From a virus, in the IMG/VR virus record IMGVR_UViG_3300045988_025287, positions 1-64,000 of that record: DNA of 64,000 nucleotides; one strand, written 5' to 3'. Position 1 is the first letter of the stretch. Each line of letters starts with the position of its first letter. Under the pieces are notes generated by a model. The model was not told where the DNA came from. It did no database searches and saw only the letters and a list, made by a program, of their open reading frames with translations. Shown one piece after another: positions 45,822 to 60,953 of this stretch. The translations under genes were made by a program, and so were the position numbers.

Positions 45822-46211
45822 GACTAGACCTTCTTTTTAGTTAATATTAGAGTCTAGTATACTCAGTCTGTGAAGATAGAGTATACGTCCTCAGAAAATG
45901 ACAAACATGTGGGGCGGGAGTAAATAAGTAAAACTAAGCAGTAGTATTATATATCAGTAAGGATACTACGCCGAATCTGATTGTTTTGTTTATTTATAGT
46001 CGTGCGGACGTTAAAATCATGTACTCCAATAAGATTTAGTTTGACAGCTATTTCTGCTTACGAGTTAAAACTATAGTGAGAGTCATAGTAAGTAACGATT
46101 GTAGTCGTTTATCTTTGTCTTATAACAAATGCTATAAACTAAGTTGGCACTAACTTAATTAAATCCTGAGTGCCCAGGCGTCATTATTAACAATTTAAAT
46201 TTTTTAGAAAC
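45822..46211. ncRNA. ORF-free tract (about 390 nt) with the shared GTGCGGACGTTAAAATCA box
   Basis: No ORF in the track. Box at 46002-46019 is 17/18 identical to 44092-44109. GGAGTAAA motif at about 45917. Confidence 0.35.
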
Positions 46212-47421: not shown

Positions 47422-47663
47422 TTTAAATTGTTAGTAAAATGGTGGATTCAGTCAACCCAAAGAACTGTTTAAGACTAGAACCCTAATGGAAATTGTCAAT
47501 CAAGAGTACAATGGACTATACAACGGTCAACCACATTATATGTAGGTCAGGAGAAGGCAGGGAGTCTCCTGTTGAATAAGAAGTACAAATAGACAGGAAC
47601 AGTTCTTTTTAATTATTACTTAAATTTACTAAAAGATATGAGTAAAACAAAAAACAAATTAAA

Positions 47664-48403: not shown

Positions 48404-49048
48404 CTAAATCAAAACAAATAAAAGAGGTTCCAAGCTTAGAATCTTTGAATCAATAGCTTAGTATGTGAGTCGGAAATAGTTCTTTTGAACTCTAGGGCCT
48501 GAGGCATACAAGGACCTGAATTAACAGGTCTCATACAGAATTTTAAATCAGTTATGGGGAACTACCGTGAACTACTGATCATAAGTCTGAGATCGCGACA
48601 ATAAGATTGTCCTCTAGAAATAGAGAAACGCTCTAGTCGTGACATCAAGTTTAGACTGAATAATATGAATCTTTGAATCGTTTAAAGTATCTATACTTTA
48701 ACTATTATTCGTGTATTATCAAGATCAGTATAAGAGAACTAACCATTCTCAAGACCATAGGGTATATGACTTTGGTCGGTCATATACCCACAATAGAGTA
48801 GGTATAATACCGAACTGTAAAAAGAATTGACTGTTAGGTCTATTTATGCCTTCAGGTGACCGCGGGGCAGTACCGCGCACATCCACTAAAAAAATATAAT
48901 AAGGGTGTGAAATAGTATTGAACCGTTGAAACAGAATAGAATAGGTCAATAAGCAGATAACTGGCAATACAAGTTATGTAACGGACTATACTGGTATCGC
49001 AGCGTGATAACAGAGTCCAACGGCTAAGCTAATGTCGTAGAAAGCTGG
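48404..49048 (+). ncRNA. ORF-free structured tract (about 645 nt) abutting a tRNA-like element
   Basis: 11-bp perfect hairpin GGGTATATGAC/GTCATATACCC (48760-48789). CGCGG/CCGCG helix (48861-48877). Direct repeat GAATCTTTGAATC at 48439 and 48667. The only track ORF here (minus, 48749..48967) spans the hairpins. Confidence 0.45.
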
Positions 49049-50459: not shown

Positions 50460-50507
50460 GTCTATAGAGTCTTGGTTGACTCTATAGGCACACTAAAGCC
50501 CGTAATT

Positions 50508-51068
50508 ATGACAGATGAAGAAAGACAACAGCTTTTAGATCTGATCAAGCAGGCTAAAGAAGGTAAACAATATGCCTTCACACAGCTTTATAATCGTTAT
50601 CACAGAATTATATACAATACTATATATAATATTGTACACAATAAGGATGTAACAGATGATTTAGTATCTGTAACGTTTACTAAAGCTTTCTTTAAGATAG
50701 CTAGTTATATTAATCATATTTCATTTGAAATGTGGTTAAAAACTATCGCTATAAATAGTAGTATTGATTATATACGACGTACTAAAAAAGAGAAGTATGA
50801 TTATGAGTTAGATAATGATAATAACTGTCTACAGGTAAGCAGTTCGGCCGACAGCTCACCAGAAGATGTCTACATCTATCATGAGACGGATAGTAAGTTA
50901 TCTGATGCACTAAACAGACTTCGCTATAAGTATAGGTATATACTTGAACTACGCACAGTTCAGAATCTCTCTTACAAGGAGATTGCTGAACATCTTGAGC
51001 TCTCTGAGTCTCAAGTAAAATCTCGCCTTAATAAAGCGAGAGAGAAATTAAAACAATTGTTAAACTAA
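50508..51068 (+). CDS. ECF-type (sigma-70 family, group 4) RNA polymerase sigma factor, 186 aa from ATG (track ORF starts at TTG 50472)
   Basis: Region 2: AFTQLYNRYHRIIYNTIYNIV...DDLVSVTFTKAFFKI...FEMWLKTIAINSSIDYIRR. Region 4: ALNRLRYKYRYILELRTVQNLSYKEIAEHLELSESQVKSRLNKAREKL. Confidence 0.85.
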   Translation: MTDEERQQLLDLIKQAKEGKQYAFTQLYNRYHRIIYNTIYNIVHNKDVTDDLVSVTFTKAFFKIASYINHISFEMWLKTIAINSSIDYIRRTKKEKYDYELDNDNNCLQVSSSADSSPEDVYIYHETDSKLSDALNRLRYKYRYILELRTVQNLSYKEIAEHLELSESQVKSRLNKAREKLKQLLN

Positions 51069-51531: not shown

Positions 51532-53046
51532 ATGGCAAAAGAAATGAGTAAGGCTGAAAGAAAGGCAGCCTTGAAAGCAGCAAAAGCAGCAGCAAAAGCT
51601 GAAGCTAAAGTAAACAACACTGAGAACAAGAAAGAGGAAACTAATCCTCAGGTAGATAACAAGCCGAAAGATGCTAAAGTAGAGGATGCAAAGAAAGCTC
51701 CTACTACAGCTAAGGAAACTAAGGTTCAGGCGAAGAAGGATGCCCCTAAAAGTCCGGATAAGCCTAAGAAGAAGGAAGAGAAAATTCCTACAATCATTCC
51801 TGAAGATGCAACAGGTAAGAACAGCCCTGAAAAGAAAGCTGTAGAACGTGCTGCAAACCTTATCACAGGAATTCCTACGGCCGGTATACCTATTGGTTCA
51901 AGAGAATCATCTGTTGATGGTAAGGCTATGTTAGCATTTGTAATGCAACAGCGTTATGCTAACAATGAAGAACTCAAGAAGCAATATCCTGAGTTATATG
52001 CAGACATCAATCGTAGCATTGATGTAGTTACTTTGTTAGCTCTTGTCGATGTACGTCAAGACTTGTTCGACCGTGGTGAACGTGGCGAATTGCAGTTACA
52101 GATAGCTGCAGACCAAGTATTACCGCTGCAAAGTATGGCAGAAATGCTAGGTATTAAACTAGCTCCTGCTAAAGCTCTGCCTGGGAATGATGGGCAAATG
52201 TCTATTAACTTCTCAGAAAGTGAAGTACCTACAGAACTTGCAAACAGCAAGCCAAAAGTAGAAATTCCAGAGCTTGATCCTAACAAGATTACTAATGATG
52301 AGGAATTGAAAACTGCCCTTAATTACCTCATCTCTAAAGAGAAGAATGTGGCAGAAAATATAGTTAACACTGTAGAATGGTATCGTGTATATCGCGGCCT
52401 GAAAGAAACTAATGCAGATAAGAAGCTTGCATTAGACGAAAAGACAGTTACAGATTGGATTAATGAGATATTCTCTATTATCCAACCTACAGCCATCTTA
52501 CGTGGTTTAGGTCGTGCTGTATACTTATATACTTCACAGACAGGTTCACCGTGTATGGCTCACTCTATCATGCATACACATATGTCTAAGGCTGGTTGGA
52601 GTGAAGAACAAGTAGCAGAAGCATTACGTGCTTTAATTGGAGAAAACTTCCGTTATAAACTGAAGGATGATCCTGAAGCAAAGCCTGAAGAAGATAAAGC
52701 AATTAATGCTATTACTGGCTTACTAGGCAATGACTATATTGATAAGTTATTTGCCGACTATACTATTACTACTGATGGTGTAGAAGACAGTAAGAAAGTT
52801 GAACTTGAAGCTGCACGTGAAGTTGCCCGTAAGGTTCTAGGGAGTATTCGTACCAATTACTTTGACAAACAGAAGGAGACTCCTACGCTTGATAAGATGC
52901 GTATGGTAGTAGGTCAGATTATTAATCTGTATCGAAATCCGGCTGATCGTCTTGCAGAGTATTGTCAAGGAGATTTAATCGCTCCAAAGGAAGACGAATA
53001 TCCTAAGAATGAAGAGAAATCTGAAGGGACTGAAAAAAAAAACTAA
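51532..53046 (+). CDS. Hypothetical protein, 504 aa, with K/A-rich basic N-terminal region
   Basis: Intact track ORF. N-terminus KAERKAALKAAKAAAKAEAK... No catalytic motif recognised. Confidence 0.6.
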   Translation: MAKEMSKAERKAALKAAKAAAKAEAKVNNTENKKEETNPQVDNKPKDAKVEDAKKAPTTAKETKVQAKKDAPKSPDKPKKKEEKIPTIIPEDATGKNSPEKKAVERAANLITGIPTAGIPIGSRESSVDGKAMLAFVMQQRYANNEELKKQYPELYADINRSIDVVTLLALVDVRQDLFDRGERGELQLQIAADQVLPLQSMAEMLGIKLAPAKALPGNDGQMSINFSESEVPTELANSKPKVEIPELDPNKITNDEELKTALNYLISKEKNVAENIVNTVEWYRVYRGLKETNADKKLALDEKTVTDWINEIFSIIQPTAILRGLGRAVYLYTSQTGSPCMAHSIMHTHMSKAGWSEEQVAEALRALIGENFRYKLKDDPEAKPEEDKAINAITGLLGNDYIDKLFADYTITTDGVEDSKKVELEAAREVARKVLGSIRTNYFDKQKETPTLDKMRMVVGQIINLYRNPADRLAEYCQGDLIAPKEDEYPKNEEKSEGTEKKN

Positions 53047-53117: not shown

Positions 53118-53519
53118 ATGAATAATAGAATGTTAACTGTAGTTGGAATGTTTGTTGTCAGTGTATTCATTGGTAGGCAAATGTTTGCAACTACAGAAGT
53201 TATACAGGCACAGCCTGTTATACCCTCTATAGTGGAGTTACCTAACTTCCCTAAAGTAATAAAAGAGGAGAAAAAGTCTGTAGATGAGATAAATGTCGAA
53301 GTCGACTTATCTACATTAGAAGTATCTGTGAAAGGAACAACAGACGCAAAAGTGAATGTAAAAACTACTGGTGAACCAAAGCCAGTAGTTAAGTGGAAAA
53401 CTAAAGTAATAGAGAAGACGAATTCAACAGGATATCCGAAAGTAAAAGCTATAAGTAAGGTATCTGATGACGAATCACCGGCAACTCCATTAACAATAGT
53501 AGATAAATATGAACAATAA
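53118..53519 (+). CDS. Hypothetical protein with N-terminal signal/TM segment, 133 aa
   Basis: Track ORF. Confidence 0.5.
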   Translation: MNNRMLTVVGMFVVSVFIGRQMFATTEVIQAQPVIPSIVELPNFPKVIKEEKKSVDEINVEVDLSTLEVSVKGTTDAKVNVKTTGEPKPVVKWKTKVIEKTNSTGYPKVKAISKVSDDESPATPLTIVDKYEQ

Positions 53520-53931
53520 AATTATACTTCAACAGATGATACGTCTATCACGTATCATTAAGGACTCAAGAGAAGCAAGAGCTAAATTGAATTCTATTCA
53601 AGCTCAAACTGAATACTTTATAGTAGAAGGTAATCAGTCTACTTTTATTAGAGACCAAGCTAACAGTAGTATAACTAATTGTTTATATGTAGAACAGTAC
53701 TTACGTTCGTCTGTAAGTAATGCTTGTAAATGTTTGGATGGTTTTGATGCTTCAAAAATGGAACCAATAGACTACATCAGTAGTAGTGATGTAAAAAATA
53801 AGTTTGTCGACATATGTCTAGGTAAGAAAGTAGTAGCTTCTATTAATCTTACCACTGGTGAAATAATAAGCATCAATACACCAAAACAAGGATTAACGGC
53901 TAAAGATGACAGCCCTACGGTAAAAAGTTAG
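53509..53931 (+). CDS. Hypothetical protein, 140 aa (stop context TAG TGA TAA TAA)
   Basis: Track ORF. Confidence 0.5.
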   Translation: MNNKIILQQMIRLSRIIKDSREARAKLNSIQAQTEYFIVEGNQSTFIRDQANSSITNCLYVEQYLRSSVSNACKCLDGFDASKMEPIDYISSSDVKNKFVDICLGKKVVASINLTTGEIISINTPKQGLTAKDDSPTVKS

Positions 53932-56037
53932 TGATAATAACCGTATAATAAATACTATAATTATATCACAGTTCGAGAGGAGTAAAACTATAGCGTAAAT
54001 CACTCCGAGGAAGTCATGCGGTAAGGTATATAATAATACTGGTCGCACCTGTCAGGGAGTTTGGAATCATTTCTCCATAGCCCGAAAAGTTACATGATCC
54101 GAGAATATGTTAGCAGCTAAAACTGTGAGATTACTCAAAAGGTAGGATGTTAGCTTATGTAATTGAAAACTACATAAGAGGGGATAAGCGTGTACAATCC
54201 TCATTAGGAAGTGAGAACCGTTTGGAGACTTCTAAAGACGCAGTACTAAAGAGAAGACACACTGAGTGCTAAACAGTACAAAGGGAACGAAATCCCTATA
54301 TCCGTATTAGTTTATCAAAAGCAGAATCAAAAAGGGATATAAACACGATGACGAAACAGGGACAATACGGTTCCTGACTTATTCCTTTGGAAAGAATAAG
54401 TAAAGCCGAGAGGCAAAGGTTAGTTTCACCTTAAGAAGCAGCCAGCTCGTGGAAAAAAAGAGATTGCAGATAACGCATTACCGGTCTCCAAAATCGGTTA
54501 ACAAAAGCGCTACTGTGCGTCCAGAAAGGGAAACAGGCTAACTCTAGTGTTCAGTATACATCAGCTGTGATGCAATATGCAATTGTGGATATTGGAACTT
54601 ATACTTATGAAGGGAGTAAACTACTAATACTAATGTAAGGATAACCGTGTTATGGTACATACTTATACAAAGTAAGGATATGAAAGCTGGAAACGCAATG
54701 ATCCAAGAATTAAACGTGCAAACGTTAAAGCTTGACTGATTAACGTGGAGCAGGAGCCAATCCTGTACATTATCGTAAATAGTGTGCTGTAAAAGAACTT
54801 ACGTATAAGGGATGAGGTATATGAGATTGATACCATCTTTCAAGTCTAAGGTGACTCATGAGTTTTGTCGTGTAGATGAGTATAATGTATGAGAAATGAC
54901 GAGACTAAAATATAATAGTCTAAAATGCGAGTATGAGGGCGCTATAACCCTGAACTTAGAAGCGGACACCTTTAGCAAGTGTTATTACGTGGTAATAAAT
55001 AAGATTAGGAGATGCAGAGAAAACTCCTTGTAAAAAACGGCAGAGCTTAAGCATTTCAAGATATGTAAATGCCTTTGATTTATTATGCTAGTTCACACCA
55101 GAATTTTGGATAATAAACATCGTTATGGATTAAGGAAGTAAATAGAGTTATTAAAGATGCTTTAGAGTTAGAATCCTAAAACCAGTTTAGTAATAATTAT
55201 AGTATATGATGATATACTTAATGAATCAATTTTACTTACGCTGAGTAGAGTCAGCTATGACAAAATGAACTCTAATTATTTAACTTTTTAATTAATTGGG
55301 AAGTCCAATGATAGTACAGAGATTTCAAACTACTATTGTAAAGTAGGAGTTAAGGAGTACGAGTCACCCCGACTGCCAACCGACATTGCTGACTGTTAAG
55401 ACACTCGTAAAGTACAATGCGCAACATTGTATGTGAGAGAACGCTGAGTCGTTAGTTACCTGTGTTGTTTCTTACACTGTCTCTGTAAGGGCAATAGTAC
55501 ACTTATGATGAAAGTATTCCATAAGCAAACAAGGAGACGATGATAGGTGGAAATCCTAATGTTCGTGCAGTATAAACAAACAAATCCTGGAAATGGTATA
55601 GATGGGTCATGCTATAAGCAATGAGTCTATGATTTTAGTAATGTTAGATTAAACAACCGTAATTCTAGCGAATTTCGATAATATCCGGACATACTCAGTA
55701 GGTTCTAAGGAACTGATGATAAAGTGGCTTATATCGCATCTAATCGCGTTATACGCTTACGGTGAGGGGTGCGTTAAGCATCGAAGGAATTGAATCTTAA
55801 CCGTCGAAACGGGACGTTAAAACAAAAAATATCAGAAATTATCAGAAGTAACTCACAGAGTATTTCTCATAAATTTTCAATTTATTATTTTTATGCTTAG
55901 TAGATTATGTGATTGAGTTCACCTATTCCAATTTTGAATAGCTATTAAATAATCGAACGGTGGAGAGACTTTAACAATTTTTTGTATAACTATGTTCGTA
56001 TTGGTATATCAAGTACGGACTCAAAAAGGAACATTTT
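53932..56037 (+). ncRNA. 2.1-kb ORF-free, helix-rich tract: candidate large structured RNA(s)
   Basis: No ORF of 60 aa or more in any frame. All three stop types recur in the two plus frames I read across 54001-54190. Helices at 53979-54006, 54154-54178, 54378-54400 and 54723-54745. Many GAAA-type loops. Strand assignment is tentative. Confidence 0.5.
55831..55847 (+). promoter_or_regulatory. Phased ATCAGA repeat (ATCAGAAATTATCAGAA), copy 1
   Basis: Identical 17-mer at 63971-63987. About 190 nt upstream of gene 56038. Confidence 0.4.
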
Positions 56038-56664
56038 ATGGAAAATAATATTAATGGAGCTAACACTCCGGGTTTAGCAGCTCAAATTTTAGCTCGCTAT
56101 CGGCAAACAGCCCAGAAGTTTGGGCCTTTCTTTGGACAGCAGATATTTACAATCGTAGCACAGACTCCTGACCTTAAGTGGAAAGAAGATGTAGCTACAG
56201 GTAAGAATACTTTCCGTCAGGAAGTAAAAGCTTATATTCTCAAGGCTATTGATGTTGAGTCAGTTAGTTTACTTGAGAAGGATGTTGATGGACGTCCGAA
56301 AATCATCTTGAATGAAAAGAAGAATGATCCATCATTAGTTTTTGAGCTTGCTGATCCTGAATTTACTAAAGCAACCCGGCAGAATGTAATTGAATGTATT
56401 GAACGGTTGAGTAAACCAGGCTCTAAGCCTATGTTCTTTACAGCTGAAGAACTTCCTATGTTGAATGACTTAACTAAGTTATCCAACCAGAGTGTGTTGA
56501 ACTTCTATGAAGAAATGACACGTAAGTGTATGCAGTTAGCTGAAACTGTCCGTGGTTATATGGATATGAATCAGCGTATGCAGGTTGAGTATTTACGGCA
56601 GTGCGGTTTAGATAATCAGGAAACTGAAATTCACGTAACTGCTACAATTACTGAAGAAAAATAG
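56038..56664 (+). CDS. Hypothetical protein, 208 aa, ending in TAG TAG
   Basis: Track ORF. The next ORF is in the same frame. Confidence 0.55.
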   Translation: MENNINGANTPGLAAQILARYRQTAQKFGPFFGQQIFTIVAQTPDLKWKEDVATGKNTFRQEVKAYILKAIDVESVSLLEKDVDGRPKIILNEKKNDPSLVFELADPEFTKATRQNVIECIERLSKPGSKPMFFTAEELPMLNDLTKLSNQSVLNFYEEMTRKCMQLAETVRGYMDMNQRMQVEYLRQCGLDNQETEIHVTATITEEK

Positions 56665-56673
56665 TAGAAGCTT

Positions 56674-57237
56674 ATGAACGGCAGACTTTCTTCATTACGT
56701 GTAGAACTTCTGCGAATTCTAATATGTTCTGAGCCAGCCATATTGTCTAAAATTCAGATTTGGAATGGAGGACGTACAGAAACGCCTAAAAAAGTAAGTA
56801 TTAGAGAAGATGGACGGGTCTTCCTATTTTACGGAAGTGGGCCATTATGGTGGCAAAGATTATTTAATACTTATGAATCGGTAAGTATTATAGATGCTTC
56901 TATTAGTATAGCAGATGCAATCACTGGGTCGAATTCGACTCGAAATGAATTTGCTTTTAACGAGATTACTAAGAGTATAATCGACGAAGCAAAGAAACGT
57001 AAGGATTTCGATTGTATTGTTGATATTTTGTTTGATTGTATGAGGAATTGTTCAGATGGGGAACTACATTCCAAATGGATTAATCAAGAGAATATCAAAA
57101 AATATGCAAGAGAAAATGGTATAACCAATGTTGAAGACATTAACCTTGAAGGGCTTAATGGAATAGTTGGAATTAAGACTGGTGGACGGGTTATTCCTAT
57201 AGTACTCGGCCAGTTAAGAAAATTTAGAAAATATTGA
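56674..57237 (+). CDS. Hypothetical protein, 187 aa (or C-terminal extension of 56038..56664 if TAG is read through)
   Basis: Track ORF. Same frame as 56038..56664, separated by TAG TAG AAG CTT. Confidence 0.5.
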   Translation: MNGRLSSLRVELLRILICSEPAILSKIQIWNGGRTETPKKVSIREDGRVFLFYGSGPLWWQRLFNTYESVSIIDASISIADAITGSNSTRNEFAFNEITKSIIDEAKKRKDFDCIVDILFDCMRNCSDGELHSKWINQENIKKYARENGITNVEDINLEGLNGIVGIKTGGRVIPIVLGQLRKFRKY

Positions 57238-58880: not shown

Positions 58881-58951
58881 TCTCATGTAGCTCAGTGGTA
58901 GAGCCGCTACTATGTAGTGTGAACGCGTTGGTTCGAGTCCAACCATGAGAT
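58881..58951 (+). tRNA. Non-canonical tRNA-like gene; central triplet UAU (Ile-like) if it folds as a tRNA
   Basis: Good acceptor TCTCATG/CATGAGA, D arm GCTC-AGTGGTA-GAGC and T arm GTTGG-TTCGAGT-CCAAC. The anticodon region CGCTAC-TAT-GTAGTG forms a 6-bp stem with a 3-nt loop (or 4 bp plus loop ACTATGT, with C at position 33). Confidence 0.45.
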
Positions 58952-58973
58952 CTAACTTTTAAATACTTATAAT

Positions 58974-60953
58974 ATGATTATACGAGGAAAGATAGTCTAC
59001 GTATATGATATTGAGGTATTTCAAAATATCTTTCATTGTTCGGTAAAAAATACAGAAACAAACGACATCTATAAGTTTGAGATATCAGAGAGGAAAAATC
59101 AACTAAGAGAATTAGTTAAATTCTTTAAACAGGTAGATAAATATATTACTTGGGGAGATTATTATACTACAAATATTAATATTCCAGCAAATATTATATT
59201 CTGTGGTTATAATAACTTGCATTATGATAATCCTATAATCAATTATATAATTGAATATGAAGATAAATTAATGCAATATAATATACCTACTATATGTAGT
59301 TCTATATTTAACCTAAGTAAAACTATAACTACTTCGAGTGAAGATAATATAGATGCATGGAAGCATTGGAAGTATCAGATATGGTTTGATACTTTTGATA
59401 TTCTTACTATGTTATATTCTAATAAACTTAGAGTAGGTTTAAAGGAAATTCAAGTAACAATGCAATATCCTAATGTACAGGAATTTGTATGTGATTGGAC
59501 TAAACCTCTTCCTTTAGAAGATTTTGACTCTATGATAGATTATAATATTAATGATATTGAATCTACTTCAGAATTATTAAATAGATGTAAGAAAGACATT
59601 GATTTACGAATCGCTATTGAAGATGAGTATGGAGTAAGAGTACTTAGTAAAGATGGCGTAAATATTGGAATAAAGATTTTAACTCAGAAATATCTAGAAA
59701 AGACAGGTTTAACTTGGCAGGATATTAAAGATTTAAGATCTCCAATGAGTGTAATACCATTGAAAGATGTAATATTACCATTTATTAAATATGATAGCCC
59801 TATTCTGCAAAGAGTATTAGATGATATGAAAAATCAGATAGTATCTCCAGGTAGAAAAGGATATGAGAATAAGTTTGTATTTAATAATTTACGCTATTCT
59901 GTAGGAGTAGGAGGTATTCATTCTGTGAATAGTCCTGAAATCATTATTCCTAGAGATGATGAAATGCTTATAGATATAGATGTAGCTTCTCTATACCCAA
60001 GTATGCTTATAGAATATGAATTCTATCCTAAACATTTAGGTAAAGAATTCCTAGAAGTATATAAGCAAATTAAAGATGAGCGAATTGAAGCTAAACACAA
60101 CGGCGATAAAGTAAAAAATGAAACTTTAAAGTTAGCTTTAAATGGTTTATCAGGTAACTTACAGAATGAACATAATTTCTGTTATGCCCCCGAAGCTGCT
60201 ATGAAAATTAGAATCAACGGACAGTTACTATTACTTATGTTAGCTGAAAAATTAACTCAAATTGGATGCCGAATCGTCCAAGCAAATACTGATGGTTTAT
60301 TCGTCTTACTAAAGAAAGATATATATTCTAAAGTAAACAGTATTTGTAGAGAATGGGAACAGCTTACTAAACTTACTTTAGAAGAAGATCGTTTTAAAGC
60401 AATGTATCAATATGCTATTAATGATTATTTTGCTATTACTGAAGATAACAAAGTAAAAGAGAAAGGAATGTTTATTACTACTGTAAAATTAGGTAAAGGA
60501 TTAACTCCAAAGATTATACCTAAAGCAGTAATAAGTTTCTTTAAAGATGGAATATCAGTTGAAGATACAATTAAGAATTGTACAGATATAAGAGATTTTC
60601 TAATGTCTGAGAAAACTGGTAAACAATGGCATGTTGAATATATGAACGAGGAGCAACAAAGAACTAATCGTTTCTACGCATCTACTAATGGTGGATACTT
60701 GTGGAAATGGAAAGATACTGGTCATAAAGAAGGTGAAATTATAACATATACTGAGCCATACGTAGGAGAACGTAAATATAAGGCTTCTGCAAGACAGTAT
60801 CAGAATATGCTTACTGCATCTGGTGTTACTCTTCTAAATAAATTTGATAATAAACCAATTGAAGAAAGAAAGATTAATTATAGGTATTATATTATGGAAG
60901 CCTATAAGATAATCAGAGATTTAAAACCGTTACAATTGAGCCTATGGGATTAA
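58974..60953 (+). CDS. Family B DNA polymerase, 659 aa
   Basis: Exo I YVYDIEVF, Exo II NLHYDNPII, Exo III YNINDIEST. Pol motif A DVASLYPSM, motif B KLALNGLSGN, motif C QANTDGLF. Confidence 0.85.
   Translation: MIIRGKIVYVYDIEVFQNIFHCSVKNTETNDIYKFEISERKNQLRELVKFFKQVDKYITWGDYYTTNINIPANIIFCGYNNLHYDNPIINYIIEYEDKLMQYNIPTICSSIFNLSKTITTSSEDNIDAWKHWKYQIWFDTFDILTMLYSNKLRVGLKEIQVTMQYPNVQEFVCDWTKPLPLEDFDSMIDYNINDIESTSELLNRCKKDIDLRIAIEDEYGVRVLSKDGVNIGIKILTQKYLEKTGLTWQDIKDLRSPMSVIPLKDVILPFIKYDSPILQRVLDDMKNQIVSPGRKGYENKFVFNNLRYSVGVGGIHSVNSPEIIIPRDDEMLIDIDVASLYPSMLIEYEFYPKHLGKEFLEVYKQIKDERIEAKHNGDKVKNETLKLALNGLSGNLQNEHNFCYAPEAAMKIRINGQLLLLMLAEKLTQIGCRIVQANTDGLFVLLKKDIYSKVNSICREWEQLTKLTLEEDRFKAMYQYAINDYFAITEDNKVKEKGMFITTVKLGKGLTPKIIPKAVISFFKDGISVEDTIKNCTDIRDFLMSEKTGKQWHVEYMNEEQQRTNRFYASTNGGYLWKWKDTGHKEGEIITYTEPYVGERKYKASARQYQNMLTASGVTLLNKFDNKPIEERKINYRYYIMEAYKIIRDLKPLQLSLWD

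Follow-up and report, generated by a model that had tools for sequence, protein, structure and literature searches.

A probable new family of very large structured non-coding RNAs at a fixed locus of Suoliviridae crAss-like phages

The subject of this study is a 2.1-kb tract without open reading frames (ORFs) at positions 53932-56037 of a stretch of viral DNA of 64,000 nucleotides (nt) (IMG/VR record IMGVR_UViG_3300045988_025287, positions 1 to 64,000; referred to below as the window). The tract is best read, at a probability of about 0.6, as a previously undescribed family of very large structured non-coding RNAs (ncRNAs) specific to the Suoliviridae, or delta crAss-like, phages. Its plus strand carries about 40 helices kept by compensatory substitutions across about 1.9-2.0 kb, and it can hardly be doubted that a functional structured RNA is specified there. 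That this is one large RNA rather than several is the favoured view; any specific activity that might be ascribed to it is doubtful.

The phage from which the window derives is crAss-like, as a sequence-only reading of the window had supposed, and belongs to the subfamily Loutivirinae of the Suoliviridae. The closest record to the tract is cr53_1 (NC_055889, Suoliviridae/Loutivirinae), with 92.9% identity across it. The same reading had proposed a large ornate structured phage RNA at this position, and the proposal is upheld by syntenic conservation in three subfamilies and by strand-specific covariation in two independently aligned clades; conservation and covariation were both looked at in relatives and both are strong.

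Conservation and synteny

Searches with blastn recovered the full 2.1 kb at 71-93% identity from eight Loutivirinae records, in which it is always unannotated and syntenic. Diverged but collinear versions were detected by profile hidden Markov model (HMM) and blastn in the Oafivirinae (cr131_1, cr130_1, cr7_1, cr124_1, the pig phages cr272_1 and cr273_1, Bohxovirus and a lemur Dulem virus), and others are present in the Boorivirinae (cr50_1, with a gap of 2,514 nt, cr55_1, cr1_1 and cr10_1). The same syntenic site is occupied in all three Suoliviridae subfamilies, with element lengths of 1,974-2,514 nt. In IMG/VR the two main types were represented by at least 119 and 108 contigs and by 81 and 62 full-length copies, and in the 62 Oafivirinae-type contigs the ORF-free gap always measured 1,974-2,367 nt. 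Nearly all of the metagenome matches came from human-gut assemblies of ~100-kb phage genomes. A scan of genome contigs with a loose pattern gave 120 matches, 116 of them due to chance and the four real ones lying on phage-sized contigs in metagenome-assembled genome (MAG) bins. The use of a flanking protein as query for more Oafivirinae brought no gain, that protein being too divergent.

The tract is the most constrained sequence of its neighbourhood, under stronger purifying selection than the adjoining protein genes, because its nucleotide identity in five genome pairs (71-75%) exceeds that of five flanking genes (60-75%, mostly 60-67%), and the adjacent protein retains only 53-57% amino-acid identity. 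Its position is fixed in the three subfamilies, after genes for a sigma factor and for proteins of ~500 and ~140 amino acids (aa) and before genes for proteins of ~205 and ~190 aa, a tRNA and the DNA polymerase, and in every genome compared it lies on the same strand as transcription and is collinear with it. The order of the invariant landmarks is identical in every genome and one of them, CCAACCG, was found in all three subfamilies. The distances between landmarks vary: from the start to GAGAACCG, from there to CCAACCG and from CCAACCG to the ATG they are 286, 1146 and 685 nt in the Loutivirinae, 226, 973 and 947 nt in the Oafivirinae and 398, 1168 and 964 nt in the Boorivirinae. Despite this differing internal partition the total length is steady near 2.1 kb (2.0-2.2 kb) in two subfamilies, and not one of about 150 full-length copies lacks a major segment.

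Weak matches to both RNA profiles were obtained at locus L267 (543-1911), from an 81.7-kb MAG contig of water-deer cecum, with E = 1.5e-15 and 3e-4 for the Loutivirinae profile and E = 4e-7 and 1e-5 for the Oafivirinae profile. It may represent another lineage of the RNA, diverged still further, from a ruminant-gut phage whose contig was assigned to a Lachnospiraceae MAG during binning.

Covariation and folding

Two clades were aligned and folded independently. Clade 1 (alignment A2) consisted of 23 Loutivirinae representatives less than 97% identical to each other, and clade 2 (A5) of 32 Oafivirinae-type representatives with a mean column identity of 42%. When the Loutivirinae structure was moved onto the Oafivirinae through a sequence-profile alignment only 62% of the cells paired because variable helices misalign; it was for this reason that clade 2 was given its own fold and that a joint alignment of 34 sequences (A8) was used for the universal 5' core.

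For A2, RNAalifold predicted 404 pairs on the plus strand at -461 kcal/mol, compared with -416 kcal/mol for the minus strand. Paired columns held 795 G·U cells against 155 A·C cells (~5:1), an excess which marks the plus strand as the one that is folded. Pairing was found in 94.4% of cells, against 37-41% in slid controls, both sides had changed in 157 pairs (31-38 in the controls) and the covariation score was 0.290 (0.05-0.065 in the controls). In column-shuffled alignments 102 +/- 4.5 pairs had both sides changed, and none of the 500 shuffles reached the observed figure. Results for A5 were of the same kind, with 243 pairs, 89.1% of cells paired (36-45% in slid controls), 157 of the 243 pairs changed on both sides (82-93 in controls) and a G·U to A·C ratio of 762:215 (~3.5:1). 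Mutual information with average product correction (APC) yielded 12-13 antiparallel covarying stacks against 0-2 in parallel controls, which cannot be helices, and in A8 compensatory change was seen in 15 of the 18 predicted pairs. In window coordinates an unbroken series of 37 helices, each with two or more covarying pairs, extends from 53931 to 55954.

Four short helices that had been picked out by eye are all present in the letters (GGAGT at 53979 with ACTCC at 54002; CTTATGTA at 54154 with TACATAAG at 54171; CTTATTC at 54378 with GAATAAG at 54394; CGTTAA at 54723 with TTAACG at 54740). Three of them are supported by the alignment or compatible with it, including GGAGU/ACUCC at 53979-54006, which is invariant and hence uninformative on covariation; the fourth, CGTTAA/TTAACG, is unsupported and lies in a lineage-variable segment. 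The box GACGTTAAAA (55813) and the ATCAGA repeats (55831 and 55841) reported with them are also present.

Anatomy of the structured core

Coordinates of the parts of the tract and of other features of the window are collected in Table 1. The hairpin at 53931-53969 is the 5' limit of supported structure, and as there are four consecutive stops beneath its 5' arm the upstream 140-aa ORF terminates whatever the state of TAG reassignment. In universal core 1 the invariant junction strands GAGAAUAUGU and CAAAAGGUA lie within a helix (54097-54100:54145-54148) that is written AUCC/GGAU, GUGG/CCAC, ACAG/CUGU, GUUC/GAAC or GCCC/GGGC depending on the lineage; it is followed by a small hairpin, a hairpin with a UGAAAA loop and a GAGAACCG..UGG element. 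The closing helices of the central domain, which span 156-208 nt, are the longest-range helices with covariation (100% paired, 8 covarying pairs), and the domain holds the invariant block UAACCGUGUUAUGGUACA, whose 18-mer matches at least 119 IMG/VR contigs and 108 metagenome contigs. The string of hairpins that follows (54843-55255) is the most lineage-variable part of the RNA. Universal core 2 contains the conserved strands GGGAAGU..CAAUG, CACCCCGACUGCCAACCG, GAGAACGCUGA, GGUGGAAAUCC and UUCGUGCAGUAUAAAC together with nested helices at 55314-55360, 55412-55432, 55449-55540 and 55544-55558.

A terminator scan found no U-tract or intrinsic terminator at the 3' end of the core (near 55825), and there was neither an excess of sigma-70-type sites nor a sigma-W-type promoter in the tract. 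Inside it no tRNA, known ribozyme, promoter or terminator punctuates the structure.

In the lineage of cr4_1/MT835863 a module of ~60 nt containing GCUGGAAACGCAAUGAUCC is gone from its usual place (A2 columns 950-1110, about 54662-54800 of the window), and a similar sequence, GGUGGAUACGCAAUGUUCC, occurs ~150 nt further downstream in the same domain. From the letters this looks like a peripheral hairpin that has moved to the other side of the domain.

Table 1. Parts of the ORF-free tract and other features of the 64-kb window
Feature	Position	Strand	Evidence or remarks
Structured core, ~1.9 kb	53931..55825	+	Continuous covariation-supported helices, roughly ten local domains
Four in-frame stops, TAG TGA TAA TAA, ending the 140-aa ORF	53929..53940	+	Sequence; overlap the 5' arm of the first helix
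5' hairpin, 9 base pairs, conserved 20-nt loop	53931..53969	+	100% paired, 5/9 pairs changed on both sides
5' domain	53972..54088	+	Helices 54008-54050 (3 covarying pairs) and 54052-54085 (6)
Universal core 1	54089..54232	+	Profile HMM, all three subfamilies, E = 1e-18 to 5e-8
Domain of four covarying hairpins	54283..54401	+	Contains the 45-nt element 54296-54340
Two hairpins, 54480-54498 and 54513-54536	54474..54536	+	3 covarying pairs each, 99% paired
Central domain	54634..54842	+	Closed by a composite helix of 18 base pairs, 54634-54668 : 54803-54842
Hairpin string, 54866-54901, 54963-54989, 55051-55072, 55091-55104, 55159-55182, 55240-55255	54843..55255	+	2-4 covarying pairs each
Universal core 2	55299..55571	+	Profile HMM in Oafivirinae and Boorivirinae, E = 9e-12 to 2e-8
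3' hairpin domain, 55597-55631, 55642-55655, 55693-55725, 55727-55756, 55768-55782, 55802-55816	55586..55825	+	Ends in GGGACGUUAAAAC
Phased TATCAGA repeats, 10-11 nt spacing	55829..55847	+	Up to four copies here in relatives
Invariant block UAGUAGAUUAUGUGAUUGA and hairpins	55898..55954	+	Hairpin 55923-55928:55936-55941, 6/6 covarying pairs
Hairpin UCCGUA..UACGGA (AAUCAA-containing loop), then UCAAAAAGGA (ribosome-binding site) and ATG 56038	55990..56037	+	
RAGATH-6	42625-42775	plus	Rfam
RAGATH-7	42870-43092	plus	Rfam; 95 nt from RAGATH-6; pair 11 kb upstream of the tract
Hatchet ribozymes (two)	44016-44112, 45887-46022	plus	Rfam
tRNA-Leu	44532-44615	plus	
RAGATH-9	47448-47608	plus	Rfam
Permuted tmRNA	48826-49007	plus	Rfam
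Extracytoplasmic function (ECF)-type sigma factor	50472-51068		Rightward block
DNA polymerase	58974-60953		Rightward block, ~3 kb downstream of the tract

The 3' control region and the leader of the downstream gene

The last ~210 nt of the tract (55826-56037) are probably a separate control region together with the leader of the 208-aa gene. The 19-mer TTATCAGAAATTATCAGAA is identical at 55829-55847 and at 63969-63987, in two intergenic regions. The TATCAGA element probably serves transcription control, as a recurring promoter or operator of the rightward block, and is not part of the RNA core. The segment 55898-55954 is either the leader or promoter region of the downstream gene or a 3' extension of the RNA. 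Judged by its letters, 55990-56037 is the translation-initiation element of the 208-aa gene. The hairpin that adjoins the ribosome-binding site (RBS) is kept in all three subfamilies with differing stems, being AUCGUU..AACGAU or CGUGG..CCACG in the Oafivirinae and CGUUGGUGG..CCACGAA in the Boorivirinae.

A direct repeat of 45 nt, 76% identical, links 54296-54340 in the core with 55990-56034, the hairpin and RBS of the 208-aa gene, the shared skeleton being CGUAU..AUCAA..GA.UCAA.AAGG. This internal mimic of the initiation region keeps its alignment position in 21 of the 23 Loutivirinae lineages and is absent in the Oafivirinae, because of which it is rated low and as a lead only. The two copies may share a protein- or ribosome-binding site. 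Operons for ribosomal proteins in Escherichia coli (S8/spc, L1, S15) are autoregulated by mimicry of rRNA sites, and in such a layout saturation of the primary RNA target leaves the RNA-binding protein free to repress the mRNA that encodes it. The likeness is that an element in the large RNA of the Loutivirinae resembles the initiation region of the adjacent gene; the difference is that here there is an analogy of layout alone, with a 208-aa protein of orphan fold and no mimic in the Oafivirinae.

One RNA or several

That the tract specifies a single unit is favoured by the retention of every major segment, the invariant order of landmarks, the held total length and the lack of internal punctuation. 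Several results nevertheless weigh against one large structured RNA. Folded alone, the two halves of the tract do no better than dinucleotide shuffles (z = -1.3 and -0.5) and are thus within chance, not helix-dense as the sequence-only reading had held, while a flanking coding stretch reaches z = -5.6; the case for structure must therefore rest on the comparison of genomes. The covarying helices span at most about 210 nt, none exceeding 150 nt in the APC-corrected mutual-information test, and the long-range helices predicted by RNAalifold show no covariation, as their pairs either never vary or break. With no covarying helix longer than ~210 nt a single compact fold is not demonstrated. A naive pair-compatibility scan for long-range helices returned 5,785 pairs and was swamped by clade structure, and no pseudoknot or long-range pairing has been demonstrated in the tract. 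The search for covariation in palindromic kissing loops, which in GOLLD and OLE supports homo-oligomers, was a test of low power and found none, only trivial AT-rich palindromes in long loops. The RNAalifold model is itself provisional, the partner of 54097-54100 in core 1 differing between the joint alignment and the Loutivirinae-only fold. There were no transcript-like contigs in the metagenome contig scan, which is a poor proxy for transcript ends, and the flanking proteins, being orphans, offer no functional clue.

The most durable alternative is that the tract is a fixed tandem array of independent structured RNAs of ~100-300 nt, co-transcribed and perhaps processed apart, like the RAGATH-6/RAGATH-7 pair; it is possible but rather unlikely. 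Such an array would fit the local or mid-range span (210 nt or less) of all well-supported helices, the way in which the phage's other ORF-free tracts place small structured RNAs of known families next to one another, the gain, loss or movement of single hairpin modules among lineages and the shifting partition between landmarks across subfamilies. It sits less well with landmarks that never change their order, with about 150 full-length copies all complete in their major segments, with a total length of 2.0-2.2 kb in two subfamilies whose internal distances differ and with a tract free of internal promoter or terminator signals and of ribozyme or tRNA punctuation. Short invariant long-range helices would also be invisible to covariation, so that little weight attaches to not finding them.

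A giant cis-acting element of the operon mRNA, which would be a spacer, a platform for processing or stability or a leader for the 208-aa gene and would have no function as a free RNA, is improbable. Structure does extend from the upstream stops to the downstream RBS without an obvious transcription boundary, a conserved hairpin adjoins the RBS in all subfamilies and the internal mimic of the Loutivirinae would suit competition or autoregulation. No known bacterial or phage leader, however, comes near a length of 2 kb with some 40 conserved helices and numerous invariant blocks left single-stranded. Of this length the RBS hairpin makes up no more than about 45 nt, the mimic is missing from the Oafivirinae and the TATCAGA element at 55829-55847, which recurs intergenically, suggests a separate control region between the core and the downstream gene.

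A function at the level of DNA, as a replication origin or a packaging or recombination site with hairpins in single-stranded DNA, is very improbable. The tract does belong to the replication module, the DNA polymerase gene following 3 kb further on, and G·T is also the most tolerated mismatch of DNA hairpins, so that strand asymmetry alone is not proof of RNA. But no iterons, AT-rich unwinding block or skew inversion were found in the tract, and the likeliest place for an origin is the strand switch near 41 kb. Some 40 distinct covarying helices, set among invariant unpaired blocks along 2 kb, are what a folded RNA would show and not what an origin would, and the element is collinear with transcription and on its strand in every genome.

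If the tract is accordingly taken as a large structured RNA, it would be transcribed by read-through from the genes upstream, within a polycistronic transcript running rightward (the early standard-code operon), because the first helix overlaps the upstream stops and no promoter or terminator consensus was found. It would work as RNA, most likely as a single multi-domain scaffold acting in trans during infection, either with proteins, as a ribonucleoprotein, or by self-assembly as in GOLLD and ROOL by analogy. A role linked to translation or tRNA is weakly suggested because tmRNA, tRNAs and ribozymes are nearby and there are two invariant Shine-Dalgarno-like strands. A bolder version, a single ~2-kb RNA machine that is a hallmark of the Suoliviridae and forms a defined multi-domain particle, alone or with the adjoining orphan proteins, with a new activity in infection, falls short of even odds and is offered tentatively. 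Candidate activities may include capture or remodelling of ribosomes or tRNA tied to the TAG-recoded late switch, a cage or scaffold like those of GOLLD and ROOL, or catalysis.

Non-coding status of the tract

That the tract is a decayed, frameshifted or recoded protein gene, or one or more ORF-less self-splicing introns, is already effectively refuted, although the phage does recode TAG in its leftward late-gene block and Delta-group crAss-like phages carry group I introns (PMC7886860). No frame of the six holds an ORF of 60 aa or more, as had been noted from the letters, the longest having 57 aa, and the plus-strand ORFs of 140 and 208 aa abut the tract, the first with its end at 53931 and the second with its start at 56038. 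All three stop types occur in each frame, with 36-75 stops per frame. Without a stop the longest run reaches 84 codons in the standard code, 106 if TAG is read as an amino acid, 100 if TGA is and 125 if both are, so that no reassignment gives more than 130 codons, and the earlier statement that TAG reassignment would not rescue coding was correct. Between homologs 841 indels (84%) were not multiples of 3, compared with 165 that were, column variability had no 3-nt periodicity (0.189, 0.177, 0.181) and the only ORF shared between lineages was a micro-ORF of ~25 aa, present in most of them. A protein gene, standard or recoded, was rejected on stop density, indel phase, absent periodicity and the lack of a conserved ORF, and with it the degraded gene that the sequence-only reading had allowed for, as there is no coding signature under any stop-codon reassignment. 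A group I or II intron was rejected in turn, since no intron model matched (E up to 10; homologs up to 5) and in every genome the ORFs on either side of the tract are complete, each with a stop and an RBS of its own.

The ORFs that public records place in the homologous gap (cr113_1, cr109_1, cr7_1, Bohxovirus, Dulem virus 42) are small, fall on both strands and lack conservation. Such 'hypothetical proteins' are found at L006 4438-4875, L007 4440-4877, L130 3269-3751, L132 2787-3293 and L133 3032-5040, and the gap of Dulem virus 42 has 13 annotated ORFs of 31-102 aa. As minus-strand or tiny mixed-strand ORFs they overlap covarying RNA helices and are probably annotation artefacts.

Composition does not set the tract apart. 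It had been described as richer in GC and purines than its flanks, but its GC content is 0.359 against 0.372 upstream and 0.331 downstream and its purine content 0.567 against 0.579 and 0.575. Nor are GAAA loops enriched, contrary to the impression of many, GAAA occurring 17 times against 20.3 +/- 3.9 in shuffles.

Genomic context and recoding

The leftward block of the window (1-41 kb, minus strand) is TAG-recoded. With the standard code it contains no ORF longer than 450 aa; with TAG as sense ORFs grow to 1,212, 1,079, 1,059, 853 and 837 aa and total coding from 6,913 to 12,677 aa, and TGA as sense has no effect. This agrees with the account of the Delta group by Yutin et al. (PMC7886860). 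No suppressor tRNA was found in the 64-kb window. The rightward block (41-64 kb), which uses the standard code and contains the ORF-free tract, carries replication and early genes, among them a sigma factor and the DNA polymerase (Table 1), orphan proteins, tRNA-Arg and tRNA-His. The tRNA-Arg is 1.3 kb and the tRNA-His 2.8 kb downstream of the tract, and the tmRNA is 5 kb upstream. In the tRNA-His (58881-58952, ARAGORN; 46 bits with Rfam) the anticodon 'atg' is at position 32, not the usual position, and this may be an atypical or mis-called tRNA.

Curated RNAs are densely clustered between 42625 and 49007 in other ORF-free tracts of the rightward block. Six smaller tracts had been thought to be of the same kind as the one at 53932-56037; they are for the most part accounted for by Rfam families, namely RAGATH-6/7/9, two Hatchet ribozymes and a permuted tmRNA.

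The neighbouring proteins of 504, 133, 140, 208 and 187 aa had no sequence match in Pfam, PHROGs, NCBIfam or PDB. AlphaFold2 (AF2) models of the 208-aa and 504-aa proteins, with predicted local distance difference test (pLDDT) values of 79.8 and 69, gave no Foldseek match in PDB better than E = 0.3. The model of the 504-aa protein has a long disordered Lys-rich N-terminus and an all-alpha C-terminal part, and the modelled N-terminus would be compatible with nucleic-acid binding. Inside the 504-aa ORF, 51800-52749 folds with a minimum free energy of -276 kcal/mol, compared with -232 +/- 7.8 kcal/mol for dinucleotide shuffles (z = -5.6, none of 20 shuffles equal), which may reflect RNA structure in a coding sequence or an effect of composition. 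The 208-aa ORF ends in TAG TAG (56662-56676) and shares its frame with the ORF that follows (ATG 56674); in RefSeq cr53_1 (L001 5129-6328) the two are annotated as a single protein of 400 aa. If TAG were reassigned late in infection, a fusion protein of the two ORFs would result.

Significance

Large structured RNAs are rare, the known ones being rRNA, RNase P, group I and II introns, OLE, GOLLD and ROOL. Each so far has revealed new RNA biochemistry or architecture. The tract RNA has two to three times the length of GOLLD and likewise exceeds the largest known phage "ornate" RNAs, and if it is truly a single RNA of ~2 kb, no larger structured RNA would be on record for bacteria or their viruses apart from rRNAs and introns. 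The element takes up about 2% of a ~100-kb genome, evolves more slowly than the adjoining genes and is found in hundreds of assembled genomes of a phage family that contributes substantially to the human gut virome, 13-18% of crAss-like reads belonging to the Delta group (PMC7886860). In reference genomes the region is blank or filled with spurious small ORFs, and it now provides a sequence-defined target for transcript mapping, for cryo-electron microscopy (cryo-EM) and for a new Rfam family, with which the annotation of the Suoliviridae could be put right.

RAGATH-6/-7/-9 and Hatchet show that this phage lineage invests heavily in non-coding RNA. With the tract RNA, tmRNA and tRNAs they form a dense set of RNA genes in crAss-like phages, in which a standard-code early block stands beside a TAG-recoded late block, and from this arrangement comes the testable idea that the RNAs take part in the takeover of translation.

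Comparison with known RNA families

Rfam 15 (4,227 models) was searched with cmscan over the whole window at the gathering threshold, over 53400-56500 at E up to 10 and over five divergent homolog loci at E up to 5. The sequence-only reading had been unable to assign a family, and none emerged from these searches. In the three runs neither the GOLLD (RF01998) covariance model, which represents the conserved 3' half of that RNA with its multi-stem junctions and pseudoknots, nor the ROOL (RF03087) model matched the tract or the five homologs, and the same was true of OLE, HEARO, raiA and the other curated large bacterial ncRNAs. The sole sub-threshold match in the tract was a GEBRO fragment of 66 nt (15.5 bits, against a gathering score of 284.7) that did not recur in homologs. 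Covariance models and ARAGORN found no rRNA, tmRNA, RNase P RNA or tRNA inside the tract, and the RAGATH-6/-7/-9 and Hatchet models had no match within 53932-56037.

Full-text literature searches, covering crAss genomics, the cryo-EM paper and surveys of large structured RNAs, found no kilobase-scale RNA described in crAss-like phages. A phage-wide survey of structured RNAs reports motifs of 29-151 nt only and does not mention crAss; individual hairpins of the tract RNA may be in its catalogue.

RAGATH-6/-7/-9 and Hatchet, the last a self-cleaving ribozyme, resemble the tract RNA as structured RNAs on the same strand, in the same rightward block and in ORF-free tracts. They differ in being of 100-220 nt each and already curated in Rfam.

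GOLLD and ROOL are phage-encoded, lie near tRNA islands and were recognised by covariation, and their function is not known (PMC12286853). GOLLD is, like the tract RNA, a very large structured ncRNA of phages and prophages, often near tRNA genes (PMC12286853), and has a universally conserved and a variable part, as do cores 1 and 2 and the variable middle here. It is only about 800 nt long, in contrast to 2.0-2.5 kb, and occurs in Lactobacillales, Actinobacteria and marine phages, whereas the tract RNA is confined to crAss-like Suoliviridae from the guts of animals. GOLLD assembles as a 14-mer nanocage held by kissing loops whose palindromes covary; a search of low power found no such loops in the tract RNA. 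ROOL is also a large ornate phage or prophage RNA near tRNA islands, highly expressed and with no known protein partner (PMC12286853); its origin in gut and rumen ecosystems is a further likeness. It is about 580-660 nt long and has multiple pseudoknots and a closing architecture, whereas tests of the tract RNA brought out neither long-range nor pseudoknot pairing. What unites the tract RNA with both is that it is phage-encoded, non-coding, well over several hundred nt long and extensively structured with support from covariation. It is probably a new class within the large ornate phage RNAs, matching no known family and unusual in its size of 2.0-2.5 kb and in being encoded by one of the dominant phage families of the human gut.

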